From positions 2,107 to 66,106 of IMG/VR virus record IMGVR_UViG_3300029822_000002: a stretch of DNA of 64,000 nucleotides. One strand, given 5' to 3'. Positions within the stretch are counted from its first letter, which is position 1. Each line of letters opens with the position of its first letter. Under the pieces are notes generated by a model. That model was not told the DNA's origin. It was given only the letters and a program-made list of their open reading frames with translations, and did not search any database. Below, in pieces: positions 2,488 to 37,034 of the stretch. The stretch comes from a virus. A program made the translations under genes and the position numbers.

Positions 2488-2876
2488 AAAACATTAATAA
2501 TTTTAATGAACAAACATCATATTGGAATGGGTTTTTTGATGTTGGTGTTATTAAAGATGAAGAAATTCTTAAACAATTATATAGATATGCATTATCATTA
2601 TCATATGATCATCATGTGGATGAATTAACTAGTATACAAAGAAAGAAAACTAACAAATTTACTGCAGAAGAATTTATTGATCAAAAATTATCATTAAATA
2701 CACATAATGTTGTTATTGATAGATTTGTTCAAGGTGGATATAATGAAAGTTGGAAATACGGTGAAATTGGGTGTAGAGTAATAAGTGCAATTGATTTTTT
2801 CCTATTTATATATGTATCATATGAAGATTTATATGATTTAGTTGAAAAATATAATTTACCAAAAATGTTAAGATAA
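2484..2876 (+). CDS. Hypothetical protein with CTS-like leader (MKNINNFNE)
   Basis: ATGA overlap with upstream gene; leader similar to other window proteins. Confidence 0.65.
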   Translation: MKNINNFNEQTSYWNGFFDVGVIKDEEILKQLYRYALSLSYDHHVDELTSIQRKKTNKFTAEEFIDQKLSLNTHNVVIDRFVQGGYNESWKYGEIGCRVISAIDFFLFIYVSYEDLYDLVEKYNLPKMLR

Positions 2877-3001
2877 ATGAAAGTTAAAGATGATATACAA
2901 ATAACAAAACTTTTATTTAATAGAATAATAATTCTTAGAATAGTAAATAAAAAAAAGAATAACTAGTTATTATTGGATTAAACTTTAAAAACAATTATAT
3001 T

Positions 3002-3259
3002 ATGAAAATAAAATTTAAATATTTAGGAAAAAACATAGAAATCACCTATAATGAAGATAATGGATATCTAGATTATGTTAAAGATTTAGATACAGATGAA
3101 TATTTAACTATTGAATCTAAATTTCAAGGTAGAGGTATTGATATTAAAAAAGAATCATTTATGATAGGTGGTGTAAGTGATGTATGTGATGCTAGATATT
3201 CTAGAATAGTAGAATTAGATATTTTCATACCTAGATTTATTTACATTAAAAATTATTAA
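3002..3259 (+). CDS. Hypothetical protein
   Basis: ORF track, co-oriented spacing. Confidence 0.6.
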   Translation: MKIKFKYLGKNIEITYNEDNGYLDYVKDLDTDEYLTIESKFQGRGIDIKKESFMIGGVSDVCDARYSRIVELDIFIPRFIYIKNY

Positions 3260-3262
3260 ATT

Positions 3263-3496
3263 ATGATAGAATTTATAGTTAAAGGTTGTAATGACTGCCC
3301 ATTTAAACAAATTAATTATAATGATTATGCAACTGGTCATGATACAATAGAATATTGTAATTTGTGTAAAATTATGGGAGATATAGAAAATATATTAGAA
3401 ATATATGATAGTTTTAAAAAAGATAAACCAACTGAAACTCCAATTTGGTGTCCATTAAAAGGAGATGGTATAATTATAAAAATTAAAAAAAATTAA
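3263..3496 (+). CDS. Cys-rich hypothetical protein
   Basis: CNDCPF, CNLC and P.WCPL motifs. Confidence 0.65.
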   Translation: MIEFIVKGCNDCPFKQINYNDYATGHDTIEYCNLCKIMGDIENILEIYDSFKKDKPTETPIWCPLKGDGIIIKIKKN

Positions 3497-3525
3497 ATAT
3501 ATTAAAAATAATATATAAATATATA

Positions 3526-4260
3526 ATGGGAAATAAATTTAGATTCATATTAGATTATTATGATTATATTGATAATATAGAAGAATTATCGGTTAATGAT
3601 GATATTAATATATTTAATAGTTTCAAAAATCAAACTAAAAATGGATCTTTAGTATTAATAGAAGGATTAATTAAAACATACCCAATAGAAAAATCTATAA
3701 ATATAATTAAAAAAAGATTCCCGTATTTAAATATATCTATTGAAGATGATGGTGAATTATATATTGATAATTTTAAAAAACAATTAAAAGAATATATACC
3801 ACTATTCAATAATTTAGGTTATTTTATTGCTCATTTAAAAATAGATAATGATACGTGGACAAAAGAAATAAATGATGATATAATACCATCTGCTTTATAT
3901 TTAGAAGCTAAGTATGATATAAAAATTGATAAAATCCCTAATAAATTATATCATGCGTCACCTCTAAAATTTAAAGATAAAATATTAAAATATGGGTTTA
4001 TTCCAAAATCTAAAAATAAAATATCAATACACCCTGATAGAATATATTTAACGGATGATATATTAACTGCTAAATTATTTGCTAAAAATTTAGGAAAAGA
4101 ATATAGTGAATATTATAAAGATGGTTATTGTATATATTCCATTGATGGTAAGTGCATAAAAGAACTATACAGTGATGTTAATTTAAGAAAAGGAGGATAC
4201 TATGTATTACATAACATACATCCAAAATGTTTTAAGATTGTATTTGAAGGTAAATTTTAA
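3526..4260 (+). CDS. ADP-ribosyltransferase-fold (Tpt1/KptA/Arr-like) protein
   Basis: LYHAS...ILKYGFIPK...PDRIYLT pattern; paralog of 5943..6632. Confidence 0.6.
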   Translation: MGNKFRFILDYYDYIDNIEELSVNDDINIFNSFKNQTKNGSLVLIEGLIKTYPIEKSINIIKKRFPYLNISIEDDGELYIDNFKKQLKEYIPLFNNLGYFIAHLKIDNDTWTKEINDDIIPSALYLEAKYDIKIDKIPNKLYHASPLKFKDKILKYGFIPKSKNKISIHPDRIYLTDDILTAKLFAKNLGKEYSEYYKDGYCIYSIDGKCIKELYSDVNLRKGGYYVLHNIHPKCFKIVFEGKF

Positions 4261-26086: not shown

Positions 26087-27877
26087 ATGAAAAGAGATTG
26101 TATTACAATTTATGGATCACAAAGATTAATTGAATTACTTAGTAAAATTAATCATCGTATATCTAATACCATAATAGAACAATTTAGATATTATAATAGT
26201 TATCCTATATCATATCTTGATATTGGAGAATCTAATGATACTATTAGTTTTATTTATTCTAATAAGGTAAAAGAATTACAAAGGGAATACGATTACAAAT
26301 ATTCGCAAAAAGCATGGAAAGAAAAAAGATCTGAAATGAAAGTTGGTAAAGTCATTAAACTTTTATTTGGTGATTCATTTCCTGTAAATAATCCAAAAGG
26401 TAGTCCTATACCTTGCCCTCCAATAGATATTGAAACATTCGTAAATATGTTCAAAGCCGAAAGGGAAAAGAACGAAAATTACGATAGATTTGAAATTGTA
26501 TCAGGTAAAGATATTGCATTTTGGTATAATTTTAAAAATTATACTAGATTTACACATGGTGATACTCCACTTGGAAAATCTTGTTTAAGATATGATGAAT
26601 CTACTAAATTTCTAGATTTATATGTAAAAAATCCAGATAAAATAAGTATGCTTATTCTTAAAGACGACCAAAATAAATTAAGAGCTAGATCAATATTATG
26701 GAAATTAGATAACCCAGAAAGTAGAATTTATATGGATAGAATTTATTCAGTAAATGATTTTGATGTTGAAATATTTAAAGATTATGCTAGGAAAAATGGG
26801 TGGTTACATAAAGAGAGACAAACCTATGGTTGGAATAATGTAATTGTTGATACTAGAAATGATTCTTTATATACCCCTAGTAATTTTATTATGGATGTAT
26901 ATTTAAATAATAAAAAATTTAGATATTATCCATATTTGGATACATTATCTGTATATAATACAGAGACAGGTAGATTATGTAATGACGGTAGATTATTAAA
27001 AACATCACCACATATTCATTTAATTGATCCACAAGGTAGTTATATAGATGAAGTAGATCATAGACCTAGAGTTTATAGTAGATATTATGATGATGATATA
27101 CTTAGAGATGAATCAGTATATTGTCAAATAGATGATGACTGGGTATATGAATCAGATTCAGTATATGTTCATAATACTGATGGATTACGGGCTATAAAAG
27201 GATCAAATAAGATTGTTAAATCTGAAATCCTTGGTAAACGAAAATACTTTTTATCTGATAGGTGTGTCTATTCAGATTATTTAAATACTTATATTTTTGA
27301 AGATAGTGTAAGAGAAGCTTTCATTGATGATAAAAAAACTCAACGAGTAATTATTCATTTTAAAATGATCGGAAGAGGATTTAAACTAGATGATAATGGT
27401 GATATTATAGTTGATAATTCTCCACCAAAAAAAGTTGTTAAAAAAAAAGATAAAATCGAAGACTATCTTAAATTTCATCATTCTTATTATGATAGTGATC
27501 ATATCATCAGTATTAACCAATCTAGTTCTGAAAATAGGCGAATACACCCAACAGAAAGATATTCAACAGAAGAAGAAGGAGATGGATCGCACATGGATTT
27601 ACCAAGAAGAATTAGAAGATCAAGTGACACCAGATTTCCATCTTCTAGAAGATTAATGGGAGATCAAGAAGAACAAATATTACAAGGAAGACCATTATCC
27701 GAAAATATGGAAAATATAGAAATAAATGATAGAAGTGAAAGAGAACAAAACGTAGATGAAAATACATGGCAAACATTATTAGGAAATTATATGGTATGTA
27801 ATACTAATCGATGGATAAATTCAGATATGTATATTTATGGTACTGATATAAGTGAAAATGAAAATGAAAGTGAATAA
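26087..27877 (+). CDS. Uncharacterised 'SC.RY / R.L.W / MDRIY / YPYLDT' family protein, paralog 1
   Basis: Motifs shared with 54166..55626 and 55660..56850; TATCTTTG promoter at 26040-26047. Confidence 0.8.
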   Translation: MKRDCITIYGSQRLIELLSKINHRISNTIIEQFRYYNSYPISYLDIGESNDTISFIYSNKVKELQREYDYKYSQKAWKEKRSEMKVGKVIKLLFGDSFPVNNPKGSPIPCPPIDIETFVNMFKAEREKNENYDRFEIVSGKDIAFWYNFKNYTRFTHGDTPLGKSCLRYDESTKFLDLYVKNPDKISMLILKDDQNKLRARSILWKLDNPESRIYMDRIYSVNDFDVEIFKDYARKNGWLHKERQTYGWNNVIVDTRNDSLYTPSNFIMDVYLNNKKFRYYPYLDTLSVYNTETGRLCNDGRLLKTSPHIHLIDPQGSYIDEVDHRPRVYSRYYDDDILRDESVYCQIDDDWVYESDSVYVHNTDGLRAIKGSNKIVKSEILGKRKYFLSDRCVYSDYLNTYIFEDSVREAFIDDKKTQRVIIHFKMIGRGFKLDDNGDIIVDNSPPKKVVKKKDKIEDYLKFHHSYYDSDHIISINQSSSENRRIHPTERYSTEEEGDGSHMDLPRRIRRSSDTRFPSSRRLMGDQEEQILQGRPLSENMENIEINDRSEREQNVDENTWQTLLGNYMVCNTNRWINSDMYIYGTDISENENESE

Positions 27878-27992
27878 AGTAATATAATAATTATATTAAA
27901 TAATTTAAAAAATTAAAAAAAATTAAACATTTTAAGAAATTATTACTATAATAGTTTCTTAAAATGTTTAATCAAAAAATTACTTCTTTTTT

Positions 27993-28853
27993 ATGAAAAA
28001 AAATAACAATTTGTCTATTGAATTTGAAAAAATAACAGGTCAAAAATTTGAGTCATTTTACCACAAACACAAACCAAAATTAGTATGGTATTTAACAAGA
28101 TATACAAGAGATCAAGATATAGCTGAAGATTTTGCAGATGACGCATTTACACAAGCATTATTAAAAATAAATAATTATAATAATGAAAAGTCACAAGTCC
28201 ATACATGGTTATATAAAATAGCTGAAAATTTAGTAAAAAAAGATTTTAAAGATAAAAAAAGAATGTCTGTTGTATCTTTAGATAAAGATTATAATGATAA
28301 TAATCTTAATTTAATTAATATTATTCCTAATTTAGATACAGATGATAGTTATAATATTGAAATGGATAAATCAATTATTAAAAAGGCTGAAATAGTAAGA
28401 GATACAATATTTAATCTACCCGATAAATATAAAAAGGTTATGATTATGAGGGAGATAGAAAATAGACCATATTTAGAAATAGCAGAAATGTGCACAAAAG
28501 AAATGGTAATAAATATCAATAAAAAAGATAAAATTGATTTACCAAATGCATCAGAGTTTTTAGATATAAAAATTAAAAATAATGGAACAGAATATTGTTA
28601 TGTGAATTTTGAATATAATGATACGGATTGTTTACAAATGGAAGTAAAACCAGGAAAAACATTTATTTTTAATAAAAATGAACTAAAAAATATTAAAAAT
28701 GTACAAATAGATAATAATAGTCAAATAGATTGTTTATACAGAACATATACAAATTTATCAACAATAAAATCGCAAATAAGTAAAGGTCGATCATTAATAC
28801 AATCAATGGTTAAAAGAAAATTTAAATATATTGATGATAATGGTATAGAATAA
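27993..28853 (+). CDS. ECF-type RNA polymerase sigma factor with ~85-aa insertion in sigma-4
   Basis: sigma-2 (AEDFADDAFTQA..KI..Y.....V.TWLYKIA.N); sigma-4 split as LPDKYKKV..MRE.....YLEIAEM [insert] NLSTIKSQISKGR. Confidence 0.85.
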   Translation: MKKNNNLSIEFEKITGQKFESFYHKHKPKLVWYLTRYTRDQDIAEDFADDAFTQALLKINNYNNEKSQVHTWLYKIAENLVKKDFKDKKRMSVVSLDKDYNDNNLNLINIIPNLDTDDSYNIEMDKSIIKKAEIVRDTIFNLPDKYKKVMIMREIENRPYLEIAEMCTKEMVININKKDKIDLPNASEFLDIKIKNNGTEYCYVNFEYNDTDCLQMEVKPGKTFIFNKNELKNIKNVQIDNNSQIDCLYRTYTNLSTIKSQISKGRSLIQSMVKRKFKYIDDNGIE

Positions 28854-28861
28854 TTGATAAT

Positions 28862-28884
28862 AAACCGGATAATATCCGGTTTTA
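28862..28884 (+). terminator. Intrinsic terminator
   Basis: AAACCGGAT-AAT-ATCCGGTTTT. Confidence 0.75.
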
Positions 28885-29256: not shown

Positions 29257-30081
29257 ATGAATACAGAATTAATTAAAAATGAAGTATATAAAAATGAAAA
29301 ATCAAAAATTGTAAAAAAATATTTATTTTTTAATATTACATTTATTATTGTAGTTTTTTTATCTTTATCTAGTGCATCTATTCATCCAGATGAATCAAAA
29401 ATATTAAATAAATTTAAAAAAGAAACGGAAACAGTATATAAAGAAAGAGATTCATTAAAAAATATACTTTTAAATGAATTAACTGCACTTAAATTAAGAG
29501 AAAAGGATTTAATAAGAAAATCATTGTCTATTTCTGATGATATCAATTATATTGATTATAGTAATTATACAGTAACAGATTTATATAAAGAAATTAAAAA
29601 TCAAAATAATGTTTATAGTGATTTAAATAATAAGATTAATATATCAATTGATTCTATACATCATTTACCAACATTAACACCAATATCATCAAGTGATTTA
29701 ATTAGAATAACAAGTGGATTTGGACATAGAAAACACCCAATAACAAAAAAATGGTCATTTCATGAGGGTATTGACATATCAGCAACAAAAAGAACTGAAG
29801 TTTATGCAACATCAGATGGAATTATAGAAAATGTATATAAAAATAAAACAGGATATGGAAATAGAGTTATAATAAAACATAAGTATGGATATAAAACAGT
29901 TTATGCACATTTAAGTTCAATATCTGTTAAAAAAGGACAAATTATTAAAAGAAATCAAAAAATTGGTTATGTTGGAAGTACTGGTACATCAACTAATAAT
30001 CATTTACATTATGAGATATTATTAAATAATAGACCAGTTGATCCTGTTGATTATATTTATGCATATAATAAAAATTATTGA
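29257..30081 (+). CDS. M23 family metallopeptidase (peptidoglycan hydrolase-like), N-terminal TM and coiled coil
   Basis: HEGIDI, GYGNRV.IKH, YAHL, VGSTG.ST..HLHYEI. Confidence 0.92.
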   Translation: MNTELIKNEVYKNEKSKIVKKYLFFNITFIIVVFLSLSSASIHPDESKILNKFKKETETVYKERDSLKNILLNELTALKLREKDLIRKSLSISDDINYIDYSNYTVTDLYKEIKNQNNVYSDLNNKINISIDSIHHLPTLTPISSSDLIRITSGFGHRKHPITKKWSFHEGIDISATKRTEVYATSDGIIENVYKNKTGYGNRVIIKHKYGYKTVYAHLSSISVKKGQIIKRNQKIGYVGSTGTSTNNHLHYEILLNNRPVDPVDYIYAYNKNY

Positions 30082-30151
30082 ATTCTAACATATAATTTTT
30101 AAACTTATCTGATATCGTAAAATATAAGATATTAAAATTAATTTAATTAAA

Positions 30152-30847
30152 ATGCCAAGAAATAATCATGGTTATAAAATTTATAAAACATATACAATAA
30201 AGGATGTCTTTGAATTATTAAAACAAAATAAAATACCAGATGAATTAATATATCATGTTAAAGATATGAATGATTCATTGAAAAGAGCTAATATAATAAA
30301 AAATTTAATTGATAGAGATGGATTAAAATGTCAGCACTGTAATAAAATACCAGAATATTTTGCTTCTGCAAAAGATAATGCGGGTAGATGGCATTTAGAT
30401 TTATATAGTGATGATAATGGTGAACCATATATGTATACAATTGATCATATTTATCCAAAAAGTAAAGGCGGAAAAAATGAATTAGAAAATTATCAACTTT
30501 TATGCAAACCATGTAATGAAATAAAAGGCGATAAAGTTGATGGTGAAGAACCTAAGCCAAAAACTATAAATAAAAGCAAATATATTAATAAAAAATTGGA
30601 ATCATTATCTCAACAAATTAAAGGAATACTATTAAAATTAAAAAATCACAAATTGGTTTGCATAAAATGTCAAAAAAATTTTACATTAGATAAAGAGTAT
30701 AGTATAATTGACATTAATGTTAAAATTGATAATGAATTCAACACTAAATATTTAATTTATTTAAAAGATGATAATGGTAAAATTGTTAGAACAACATTTG
30801 ATAATTTTATTACTAAAATAGATTATGAAAATTATTATAAACAATGA
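30152..30847 (+). CDS. HNH endonuclease
   Basis: CQHC; TIDHIYPKSKGG.NELENYQLLCKPCNEIKG. Confidence 0.88.
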   Translation: MPRNNHGYKIYKTYTIKDVFELLKQNKIPDELIYHVKDMNDSLKRANIIKNLIDRDGLKCQHCNKIPEYFASAKDNAGRWHLDLYSDDNGEPYMYTIDHIYPKSKGGKNELENYQLLCKPCNEIKGDKVDGEEPKPKTINKSKYINKKLESLSQQIKGILLKLKNHKLVCIKCQKNFTLDKEYSIIDINVKIDNEFNTKYLIYLKDDNGKIVRTTFDNFITKIDYENYYKQ

Positions 30848-34574: not shown

Positions 34575-37034
34575 ATGGAATATTCAGAAAATTTTAAAAA
34601 AGTAATTAAGAAAGCAAAGGAGTACTCTAATGGTTTAATTGAACCTCCTCATTTATTATTTGGAATAATAAGTATAAATGATTGTAATGGTTATAAAATA
34701 CTATCAAATATTATTGATATTGATGATGCTAAGAAAAAAATGAAAACATTTTTAAATAGTGATCCAATATCTGTTGATACAATTGAAAAAAAAGATGACG
34801 ATTTAGCATCATTAAGTACCGAAGCACAAAATATAATGATGCAATCCCAATTAGAAGCAAAAAAGTTTAATTCAAGTATCGTAAGAACAGAGCATCTTGT
34901 ATTATCTATTATAAGAGCTAAAGTTATACCAAATGTTACATATACCGATGCTGAAAATATTTATAATAAAGTATTTAATAAAAATTCTAATATGGAAAAA
35001 GATGATAATCCAACTGGAACTAATGTACCTTATAAAAAAACAAAAACACCAATTCTAGATGAATTTAGTACAGATTTAACAGATTTAGCAAAACAAAATA
35101 AGTTAGATCCTGTCATCGGTAGAGAAAAAGAAATTAAAAGAATTGCACAAGTCCTTTCTAGAAGGAAAAAAAATAACCCTATTCTTATTGGTAGTGCAGG
35201 TGTTGGGAAAACTGCTATTGTTGATGGTTTAGCACAAGCTATCATCAATAAAGAAACACCTGATATTTTACATAATAAGAGAATATTATCACTAGAAATG
35301 GGTTCTGTTGTAGCTGGAACTAAATACAGAGGAGAATTTGAAGAAAGAATGAAAAAAATTGTCGATGAATTAAAACAAAACTCAGATATTATTATCTATA
35401 TTGATGAAATTCATACAATAGTTGGAGCAGGCGGATCAACAGGATCATTAGATGCTGCAAATATTTTAAAACCAGCATTATCAAGGGGTGAAATTAGTTG
35501 CATTGGTTCTACTACAAATGAAGAATATAAAAAGATCGAAAAAGATGGTGCATTAGAAAGAAGGTTCCAAAAAATTAGAGTAAATGAACCAACATATAAT
35601 GAAACATATGAAATTCTTAAAAATCTTAAAGATAGATATGAAAATCACCACATGGTGGAATATACAGATGAATCCATAATAGCATGTTTAAAATTATCTG
35701 ATAGATATATATCTGATAGACAATTTCCTGATAAAGCGATTGATGTTATGGATGAAGCTGGTGCATCTGTTAGGATTAATATTGAAACACCTGTTGATAT
35801 AATCAATAAGGAAAATGAATTAGATGAAATAACTAAACAAAAATTAAAAAAAGTATCAGAACAAGATTTTTTATCAGCTGCAGAATTGTTAAAACAACAA
35901 AGATCAATAGAATCTGAACTTGAAATAATGAAAAATGATCTTAAAAATAAAAGATTATCAAAAAGAAAAAAGGTTAGAAAAGAAGATGTATATGAAGTTA
36001 TTTCTATAATGACAAATATACCATCTAAAAATATAACAGATGATGATACATCTAAACTTGTAAATTTACCATTTGAATTGAAGAAAAAGATAATTGGACA
36101 ATACGACGCAGTTGATAAAATATCAATGGCTATATTAAGAAACAAGGCTGGATTAAATGATGAAAAAAGACCAATTGGTACATTTTTATTACTAGGTCCT
36201 ACTGGTACAGGAAAAACACATATGGTTAAAAAATTGGCTGAACAATTATTTAATAGTGAAAGAGATTATATTAGAATAGATATGTCAGAATATATGGAGA
36301 AACACTCTGTATCTAGATTAATTGGAGCACCTCCTGGATACGTTGGTCACGAAGATGGTGGACAATTGACAGATGCAGTTAAAAATAAGCCATATTCTAT
36401 TATCCTTCTAGATGAAATCGAAAAAGCACACAATGATGTATGGAATGTACTATTACAAGTATTTGATGATGGTATATTAACAGATAGTCAGGGAAGAACT
36501 GTTGATTTTAAAAATACTGTTATTATTATGACTTCAAATATTGGTTCAAAAGAAGCAAAACTAAGAGGAGCTGGAATTGGATTTAATAGTGATAAACAAG
36601 TTATGAGTAAATCAATTGTTGAAAAAGAATTAAAGAAAAAATTCTCACCCGAATTCTTAAATAGAATTGATGAAGTTGTTCATTTCGATAGTCTTAGTAA
36701 AGATAATATTAAAAGTATTATTGATATTGAACTAGATAATTTTAGAAATAGATTAATTGATAATAATATCGATATTGAATTGGATGAAACTGCTAAAGAT
36801 TTTATATTTGAAAAAGGATGGGATGAAGATATGGGAGCAAGACCATTAAAAAGAGCAATACAAAAATACATACAAGATGAAGTATCTATAAAGATTATAA
36901 CAAAAGAAGTTGTAAATGGAGATAAGATAATTATTGCGAAATCTCAAACAGAAGATAAATTAGAGATAGTTAATATAACTAAAATGTTAATACCAATATC
37001 AGGTGATACTATAACAAATATGAATGACAAATAA
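34575..37034 (+). CDS. clpC: ATP-dependent Clp protease ATPase ClpC
   Basis: Clp-N repeats, two AAA+ modules (GSAGVGKT, GPTGTGKT), UVR middle domain, IGF loop (GAGIGFN). Confidence 0.93.
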   Translation: MEYSENFKKVIKKAKEYSNGLIEPPHLLFGIISINDCNGYKILSNIIDIDDAKKKMKTFLNSDPISVDTIEKKDDDLASLSTEAQNIMMQSQLEAKKFNSSIVRTEHLVLSIIRAKVIPNVTYTDAENIYNKVFNKNSNMEKDDNPTGTNVPYKKTKTPILDEFSTDLTDLAKQNKLDPVIGREKEIKRIAQVLSRRKKNNPILIGSAGVGKTAIVDGLAQAIINKETPDILHNKRILSLEMGSVVAGTKYRGEFEERMKKIVDELKQNSDIIIYIDEIHTIVGAGGSTGSLDAANILKPALSRGEISCIGSTTNEEYKKIEKDGALERRFQKIRVNEPTYNETYEILKNLKDRYENHHMVEYTDESIIACLKLSDRYISDRQFPDKAIDVMDEAGASVRINIETPVDIINKENELDEITKQKLKKVSEQDFLSAAELLKQQRSIESELEIMKNDLKNKRLSKRKKVRKEDVYEVISIMTNIPSKNITDDDTSKLVNLPFELKKKIIGQYDAVDKISMAILRNKAGLNDEKRPIGTFLLLGPTGTGKTHMVKKLAEQLFNSERDYIRIDMSEYMEKHSVSRLIGAPPGYVGHEDGGQLTDAVKNKPYSIILLDEIEKAHNDVWNVLLQVFDDGILTDSQGRTVDFKNTVIIMTSNIGSKEAKLRGAGIGFNSDKQVMSKSIVEKELKKKFSPEFLNRIDEVVHFDSLSKDNIKSIIDIELDNFRNRLIDNNIDIELDETAKDFIFEKGWDEDMGARPLKRAIQKYIQDEVSIKIITKEVVNGDKIIIAKSQTEDKLEIVNITKMLIPISGDTITNMNDK

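Follow-up and report, generated by a model that had tools for sequence, protein, structure and literature searches.

Can the turn of the helix-turn-helix (HTH) with which a sigma factor reads the -35 promoter element accommodate a whole folded domain and, if it does, what becomes of promoter recognition? The question is raised by a gene on a 64,000-nucleotide stretch of viral DNA (the window; positions 2,107 to 66,106 of the IMG/VR virus record IMGVR_UViG_3300029822_000002), which has a G+C content of about 22% and comes from a record of 94,286 bp with a CheckV completeness of 13%. The gene encodes a sigma factor of the extracytoplasmic function (ECF) type, and an earlier inspection of the letters without database searches, here called the sequence-only reading, had proposed that a β-rich domain of about 85 residues interrupts the -35-binding HTH in its turn. 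The present analysis substantiates that proposal: the insert comprises 86 residues, with eight predicted strands spanning residues 168-252 of the protein. Few features of bacterial transcription initiation are as tightly constrained in length as the turn of the sigma-4 HTH, yet here that turn takes a whole folded domain.

Identity of the sigma factor and position of the insertion

The protein, from a huge phage resembling the Mahaphages, is an ECF-type sigma factor with two domains, and its attribution to the ECF type, already made from the letters, was upheld by Pfam, NCBIfam, PHROG and PDB sequence matches as well as by structural ones. The Pfam family Sigma70_r2 (PF04542) was matched by residues 22-90 with 48 bits against a cut-off of 24, and the TIGR02937 model (sigma70-ECF) was matched with 60.9 bits against a cut-off of 42.9. 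Sigma70_r4_2 (PF08281) was matched by residues 135-167 only, corresponding to profile positions 4-36 of 54, at 25.9 bits against a cut-off of 25.7. PHROG 1740 and all 25 NCBIfam ECF models among the matches listed also ended at about residue 166-170, and the PDB sequence matches to AlgU, SigW and sigma-E (E 4e-8 to 2e-5) ended at residues 166-167. The layout is that of ECF group 4, consisting of sigma-2 and sigma-4 only, without regions 1.1 or 3, and the sigma-4 HTH is present but split, its recognition helix (residues 254-283) aligning with that of orthologues devoid of the insert.

The full-length structure was modelled with AlphaFold2 on an alignment of 97 sequences, reaching a mean predicted local distance difference test score (pLDDT) of 85.6. 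The sigma-2 helices of the model are followed by a disordered linker (residues 94-115), sigma-4 helices at 118-140, 144-155 and 160-166, eight strands over residues 168-252 (pLDDT 86-91) and a helix at 255-283. Its sigma-2 domain superposed on those of solved ECF sigma factors (sigma-H, RpoE, SigW) with Z scores of 10.2-10.7 (e.g., rmsd 2.4 Å over 81 residues). In the model no linker is present at either junction of the insert: the first strand abuts the first HTH helix and the last strand passes directly into the recognition helix. The gene and its parts are arranged as follows.

27993..28853, plus strand: ECF-type sigma factor gene, 286 aa, stop codon included (open reading frame; Pfam, PHROG and NCBIfam matches; full-length model at the above mean pLDDT)
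28056..28262, plus strand: sigma-2 domain, residues 22-90, binding the core polymerase and the -10 element (PF04542; model helices 19-38, 41-57 and 69-93)
28344..28493, plus strand: first part of sigma-4, residues 118-167, with the region 4.1 helices and the first HTH helix YLEIAEM (PF08281 match; the three sigma-4 helices of the model)
28494..28751, plus strand: inserted 86-residue jelly-roll, residues 168-253, in the HTH turn (missing from short orthologues that align flush; model)
28752..28850, plus strand: second part of sigma-4, residues 254-286, with the -35 recognition helix NLSTIKSQISKGR and the C-terminal helix (invariant residues; model helix 255-283)

The split of the ECF motif runs as had been described from the letters, with YLEIAEMC followed by TKEMV...YRTYT and then by NLSTIKSQISKGR. 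A search of 5.8 billion proteins yielded 197 relatives, including about 100 of 276-300 aa that covered the whole query, some longer forms, and a set of 197-230 aa that was 47-54% identical and covered only 56% of the query. The short forms align flush through YxEIsE-[LKL]-NLSTVKSQIKKGR, having three turn residues (LKL, LNI) where the insert-bearing sigma factors have the 86-residue domain, and the long forms hold 78-99 residues at that place. Since the insert-less orthologues align flush on both sides, residues 168-253 represent a true insertion in the HTH turn, and an alignment of homologues, which the sequence-only reading had suggested as a check, shows it kept at the same point in about 100 full-length proteins from independent assemblies; counted over all homologues from independent metagenomes, the insert is present in more than 100. 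The flanking helices are strongly constrained, with Y160 and I163 invariant in the first HTH helix and N254, S256, T257, K259, S260, Q261, I262 and R266 invariant after the insert across the 97-sequence alignment.

When deposited phage genomes were searched with tblastn, the sole relatives were found in huge uncultured phages (LR756501/3, LR756504, LR745206 and LR756502), the 735-kb LR756501/3 giving a full-length match at 41% identity. These relatives, the four genomes of greatest size in Al-Shayeb et al. (2020), were placed there in the Mahaphage clade, and Bacteroidetes were predicted as their hosts (PMC7162821). Among 185,579 species-representative genomes, the family was present on two contigs of metagenome-assembled genomes (MAGs) only, one of which matches like a metagenome phage contig.

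Fold, inheritance and selection of the insert

An insert-only alignment of 43 sequences from viral and metagenome contigs, with identities down to about 20%, was assembled, and the insert modelled alone again formed eight strands, with a pLDDT of 92.9 and a predicted TM-score (pTM) of 0.82; because it models alone at these values, it is regarded as a separate domain. Exhaustive structural comparison of the insert returned eight-stranded jelly-rolls, including Ena1B (7a02; Z 9.3, rmsd 2.7 Å, 86 residues aligned) and Ena3A (8pdz; Z 8.5), together with viral capsid jelly-rolls, GOLD domains and cupins at Z 6-7.7, and residues 168-252 of the full model matched Ena1B once more at Z 9.3. Foldseek searches of the insert against PDB and BFVD gave matches at TM 0.5-0.65, with many uncharacterised phage proteins of about 100 aa among them. 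As to function, the PDB and BFVD searches returned generic jelly-rolls only, and the matches are fold-level similarities that are uninformative on function.

The history of the insertion was reconstructed on a tree of the sigma core built with the insert columns removed and containing 47 insert-bearing rows. On the free tree, the insert-bearing proteins fell into two well-supported groups (25 and 22 rows) with weakly supported insert-less branches between them. Constraining all 47 to one clade was not rejected (p value of the approximately unbiased test, p-AU, 0.53) and gave a log-likelihood 3.9 better than that of the free tree, so that a single gain of the insert is compatible with the data. 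Ratios of non-synonymous to synonymous substitution (dN/dS) in 14 pairs ranged from 0.05 to 0.54 for the insert versus 0.03 to 0.14 for the core, which indicates that the insert is translated and selected and that it evolves several times faster than the core. On this sequence evidence, the insertion is inherited within a large clade of phage sigma factors and kept by purifying selection.

Within the insert-only alignment, K169, F189 and N196 are the only near-invariant residues and the remainder varies, the junction threonines T252-T253 being highly conserved. The domain is net acidic in 41 of the 43 sequences (mean charge -5.6), and the charge of sigma-4 is about +6. A profile of the insert run against 1.84 billion representative proteins found 28, all the convincing ones being this sigma factor or truncated gene calls thereof, and profile searches revealed no stand-alone or differently fused homologue beside the insert-less loci or elsewhere in the 94-kb record. 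With no relatives outside this sigma family, the insert is considered an orphan domain confined to phage sigma factors.

That the insert is an artefact or a removable element, whether a mis-assembly, an intein or an intron carrying an open reading frame, is excluded by the recurrence of the same architecture in independent assemblies from many samples, by the selection at the protein level, by the absence of any Rfam intron match (only sub-threshold hairpin hits fell on a palindrome upstream of the gene), and by a fold that is a jelly-roll rather than a Hint domain. Inteins have a Hint fold, an N-terminal Cys or Ser, a C-terminal His-Asn followed by Cys, Ser or Thr, and a length of at least about 130 aa. 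At 86 aa the insert is too short; its first residue varies by lineage (C, I, T or V) and its end is T-T or Y-T, never H-N, in agreement with the dismissal of an intein in the sequence-only reading.

Several relatives carry additions of other kinds. A second insertion of about 140 aa, for which no Pfam match was found, is nested in the jelly-roll loop between strands 6 and 7 in P0011, P0012, P0033, P0038 and L107/L108 (match at 2501-3766). N-terminal extensions of 100-370 aa are present in P0013, P0015, P0028, P0041, P0050, L099, L100 and L104 and in the insert-less L038, L050, L053 and L054, that of L099 showing weak winged-helix matches. Some relatives end in strongly acidic C-terminal tails with aromatic ends, reminiscent of SSB- or clamp-binding tails. 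In P0122 (183 aa), an unrelated N-terminus of about 54 aa is joined directly to the insert and recognition helix, sigma-2 and the initial half of sigma-4 being absent; this protein may be a chimeric assembly or a recombinant.

Promoter recognition and possible roles of the jelly-roll

Insert-bearing, insert-less and outgroup sigma factors do not differ in the consensus of the recognition helix, which reads NLSTIKSQIxKGR in each group. Compared with E. coli sigma-E, polar or basic residues are kept at the positions of Y156, T169, R171, S172, R176 and R178, the residues through which sigma-E contacts the -35 element (PMC1540707). Given that the recognition helix is unchanged, we infer the same -35 base specificity as in the insert-less orthologues. 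The following promoter-like sites were located, the first of them upstream of the sigma gene.

27924..27952, plus strand: TAAACA-17-TATAAT, a conserved promoter-like element of two boxes lying some 40 nt before the sigma start codon (consensus scan)
21384, 27925, 44123 and 62261 of the window, with more in G000, plus strand: AAAC-N17-19-TATAAT sites, a candidate promoter class with -35-like and -10-like boxes (pattern scan)

AAAC and TATAAT are invariant upstream of the sigma gene in nine loci whose sigma factors are 53-95% identical, and several of the insert-less and outgroup sigma genes have AAAC-N18-TATAAT in front of them as well. Six genes of the 94-kb record carry AAAC-N17-19-TATAAT upstream, at 32-83 nt from the start codon (6 sense versus 0 antisense); counted across the entire window, the pattern does not exceed chance (5 found versus 6.8 expected). 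Neither k-mer enrichment nor a search for 5-mer/gap/5-mer dyads in the upstream regions of the record gave a convincing genome-wide bipartite motif, and only the alignment of sigma-gene upstream regions yielded a clear promoter-like element. As ECF promoters typically have AAC in the -35 box, autoregulation of the sigma gene is possible.

Dependence on the host enzyme is suggested by the gene content of two relatives. No Pfam match to Rpb2_6 or Rpb1_2, catalytic domains of the beta and beta-prime subunits, was found in the complete LR756501 or in a 98%-complete relative of 676 kb, and on this basis the phages probably depend on the host core polymerase. In the complete 735-kb LR756501 the insert-bearing sigma factor is the sole PF04542 match; in view of the dependence on the host polymerase, it would be the main means of redirecting that polymerase there. 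The 676-kb relative has four PF04542 matches, three of them above the family cut-off, and encodes a 283-aa RpoD-like sigma factor (regions 2-4), a 195-aa ECF-like one and an insert-less orthologue (G001:C1:660300-661800, L166; 601300-602500, L167).

In the complex of sigma-E4 with DNA, the start of the recognition helix (T169, S172) contacts the upstream non-template backbone at -34/-35, and the start of the first HTH helix (Y156, E157) contacts the downstream template backbone (PMC1540707). By these contacts, the turn and a domain rigidly grafted into it would lie alongside the DNA, on the outer edge of sigma-4 that faces upstream. In other systems, the upstream edge of sigma-4 is where activators and the C-terminal domain of the alpha subunit (alpha-CTD) meet sigma-4.

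Taken jointly, these results are best explained, with about even chances of the whole being right, by a working phage sigma factor on the host RNA polymerase, in which -35 reading is kept and the jelly-roll acts as a protein-contact or regulatory module. The sigma factor would take over the host core RNA polymerase and would still read the -35 element through its unchanged recognition helix, while the jelly-roll would project from the edge of sigma-4 beside the start of that helix, next to the -35 site, as a fixed protein-contact or regulatory surface rather than a DNA reader. Candidate roles are the docking of a phage or host factor, the contacting or excluding of polymerase parts such as the alpha-CTD, and self-regulation in place of an anti-sigma factor. 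With regard to the insert itself, a fixed protein-contact module is the reading we prefer, if tentatively. The acidic charge and the scarcity of near-invariant residues do not look like those of a DNA-reading surface or of a conserved ligand pocket. A more specific version, in which the jelly-roll, held rigidly at the upstream edge of sigma-4, forms an integral platform for docking that couples the main sigma factor of the phage to a dedicated partner, is possible but doubtful; candidate partners are the syntenic 596-aa protein described below, a replication-coupled factor or a surface of the host polymerase. The option of a sensor or docking domain, put forward in the sequence-only reading, is still possible.

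Several considerations weigh against this picture. Very divergent phage polymerases, of the phiKZ type, could escape Pfam searches. The position assigned to the insert relative to the DNA, the beta flap and the alpha-CTD is taken from the published sigma-E4/DNA contacts and is to that extent presumptive. Its poorly conserved surface would suit a fast-evolving interface and, equally, a mere spacer. The docking partners are candidates only, the AAAC-N18-TATAAT element may be read by this or by another sigma factor, and the bin labels of the two MAG contigs carrying the family disagree.

The main rival holds the insert to be an on-board sensor or self-inhibitory domain, which would keep sigma-4 inactive or alter its activity until a ligand or protein signal arrives, thereby replacing an anti-sigma factor. 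In its mode of action it would resemble the regulatory extensions fused to some cellular ECF sigma factors, or the cupin sensors of XRE/CRP-type regulators. No anti-sigma-like gene was seen beside the sigma gene, whose neighbours encode the 596-aa protein, an M23 peptidase and an HNH endonuclease and which is followed by a terminator; a rigid, linker-free graft next to the DNA-binding helix would also pass on a conformational change well. The fold class also includes cupin- and cNMP-type sensor domains of transcription regulators (1y9q at Z 7.1, 6b8w at Z 6.2), and the cNMP-type SthK, HCN and CooA appeared in the Foldseek list of the full model only, at low TM, with no Pfam cNMP_binding match. 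Cupins, with their double-stranded β-helix fold, match the insert at values (Z 6-7, TM about 0.5) that do not exceed those of other jelly-rolls. Against a sensor, the fold matches are to generic jelly-rolls at middling Z, no Pfam sensor family was detected, the 43-sequence alignment contains no conserved His such as the cupin motifs include, and there are no conserved metal or ligand-pocket residues, only K, F and N being near-invariant. We therefore regard a sensor as unlikely, even though it ranks ahead of the other alternatives, which follow in descending order.

Less probable still is an extension or re-targeting of DNA recognition, whereby the insert, lying beside the -35 element, would contact the backbone or flanking UP-like or extended -35 sequence. 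The HTH turn adjoins the DNA backbone in the sigma-E4/DNA complex (PMC1540707), and the linker-free graft has highly conserved residues, K169 and T252-T253, at its junctions. Against such contacts stand the net acidic charge of nearly all the inserts, their variable surface, and the promoter alignment, in which no conserved block was seen beside AAAC.

The insert could also be a tolerated passenger, that is, a small phage jelly-roll gene that landed in a permissive surface loop and has no role except to leave sigma-4 undisturbed, its precise removal being rare. Such a history would agree with the commonness of the fold among phage proteins of about 100 aa, with the pace of the insert's evolution (3-5 times that of the core in most pairs), with the further insertion of about 140 aa accepted in some lineages, and with the insert-less lineages that separate the two insert clades on the unconstrained tree. 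It is nevertheless rather improbable: each of the 14 pairs has a dN/dS well under 1, the length stays within 78-99 aa, a high-confidence fold prediction holds for sequences sharing no more than 20-25% identity, and no frameshifted or decayed copies were found among about 90 full-length sigma factors and the truncated gene calls (135-183 aa).

Least likely of the four, and very improbable indeed, is that the insert disables -35 recognition and that the sigma factor uses single-box promoters such as TWATATATA. This was among the consequences considered in the sequence-only reading, which had envisaged a possibly abolished or re-targeted -35 recognition, and it did not hold up. TAATATATA is enriched in intergenic versus coding DNA (14 versus 4) and often lies 15-40 nt before start codons, but TWATATATA as a whole occurs 37 times in the window versus 43.5 expected from shuffles, concentrated in very AT-rich spacers. 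No stretch of the family is more conserved than the recognition helix, whose consensus is identical to that of the insert-less forms, a conserved bipartite promoter-like element precedes the sigma gene, and the insert is acidic; judged from these features, the evidence argues against either loss or re-targeting of -35 reading.

Neighbouring elements and comparison with known systems

Around the sigma gene, the following further features were annotated.

26087..27877, plus strand: gene for a 596-aa protein upstream of the sigma gene, accompanying insert-bearing sigma factors (family profile)
27922..27972, no strand assigned: palindrome with a perfect 24-bp stem enclosing the promoter-like element (RNA fold -22.6 kcal/mol, z -11.6)
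28862..28882, plus strand: intrinsic-terminator-like hairpin with a T-rich tail, immediately past the sigma gene (9-pair stem with 4 GC pairs; 1 found versus 0.1 expected in shuffles)
29257-30847, plus strand: M23 peptidase with an N-terminal membrane-like segment and HNH endonuclease, past the sigma terminator (gene annotation)
34575-37034, plus strand: phage-encoded 819-aa ClpB/ClpA-type double-AAA+ chaperone (AAA_2 E 1e-70, ClpB_D2-small, Clp_N)

The profile of the 596-aa family matched the flanks of 24 insert-bearing loci versus a single insert-less one. The gene lies directly upstream of the sigma gene in the clade of the query and 0.5-5 kb downstream in the other insert-bearing clade, and its product has a conserved N-terminal region of about 440 aa with the motifs YLD, MLIL..RA..W, MDR.Y and YPYLDT. 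No Pfam or PHROG family was assigned to the protein, and the ESM Atlas returned only viral hypothetical clusters. The association with the sigma factor may be mere synteny. The palindrome has the AAAC box in its left arm and TATAAT in its loop, and it is kept with compensatory changes in two related loci (L087/L088; z -6.9 in L087), being not evident in more distant ones. Its possible functions are those of an operator bound by a dimeric regulator or of a hairpin that terminates the gene upstream; Rfam returned nothing relevant beyond the sub-threshold hairpin hits mentioned above.

The insert has been long retained in the main or only sigma factor of the largest known phages, and the HTH turn can evidently carry cargo, apparently without giving up -35 reading. 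Should the role of the domain be to dock a partner or to sense a signal, it would provide these phages with compact control of the host polymerase and could serve as a natural template for engineering orthogonal, switchable ECF sigma factors. It also opens a way into the transcription of uncultured megaphages, a subject on which next to nothing is known. Were the docking platform to prove real, an activator-like contact to sigma-4 would be made in cis, a mode of control undescribed for cellular or viral sigma factors, and the nested insertion and N-terminal winged-helix extensions of relatives would represent more add-ons to a modular phage sigma factor.

A domain inserted in the sigma-4 HTH was not described in the literature searched, the coverage of which was incomplete. 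The words 'insertion' and 'inserted' are absent from the re-classification of ECF sigma factors, which leaves out phage ECFs (PMC7826278), and a survey of jumbo phages (PMC7824862) and the huge-phage paper (PMC7162821) mention phage sigma factors, with no such insert.

Compared with canonical ECF sigma factors (E. coli sigma-E, M. tuberculosis sigma-H and sigma-L, P. aeruginosa AlgU, B. subtilis SigW), the phage protein has the same layout of sigma-2 and sigma-4 with a disordered linker, and residues contacting the -35 element are retained in kind. It differs from them in being phage-encoded, in having no anti-sigma factor seen beside its gene, and in the 86-residue domain that it carries where they have a short turn of 5-6 residues between the HTH helices. 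Close counterparts are the insert-less huge-phage sigma factors of about 199 aa (P0102, P0110, P0116; L012-L055), which are 47-54% identical, share the recognition-helix consensus and the C-terminal tail, and are likewise found on large viral contigs of up to 676 kb, although the gene for the 596-aa protein is almost never nearby. The small jelly-rolls, such as the Bacillus endospore-appendage subunits Ena1B and Ena3A, viral capsid proteins, cupins and phage proteins of about 100 aa, have the same eight-stranded topology as the insert but only 5-17% sequence identity to it, and the His motifs of cupins are missing.

Regulatory extensions within the same polypeptide, often in place of an anti-sigma factor, are a feature of ECF41-, ECF42- and ECF44-type sigma factors, in which the extra domain follows sigma-4 and adopts a SnoaL-like, TPR or Cys-rich fold. 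To our knowledge, the extra domains of ECF sigma factors are C-terminal appendages. The phage insert is instead nested between the HTH helices and is a jelly-roll, and the protein ends 20 residues past the recognition helix, with no C-terminal appendage resembling those of ECF41 and ECF42. A known insertion in sigma factors, the non-conserved region of sigma-70, sits in sigma-2. Phages that act at the position of sigma-4, the beta flap and the -35 element are known from T4, in its AsiA-MotA appropriation and in gp33-gp55-gp45 late transcription (PMC7824862); there, separate proteins bind or replace sigma-4, whereas the huge-phage sigma factor carries the extra module within itself.

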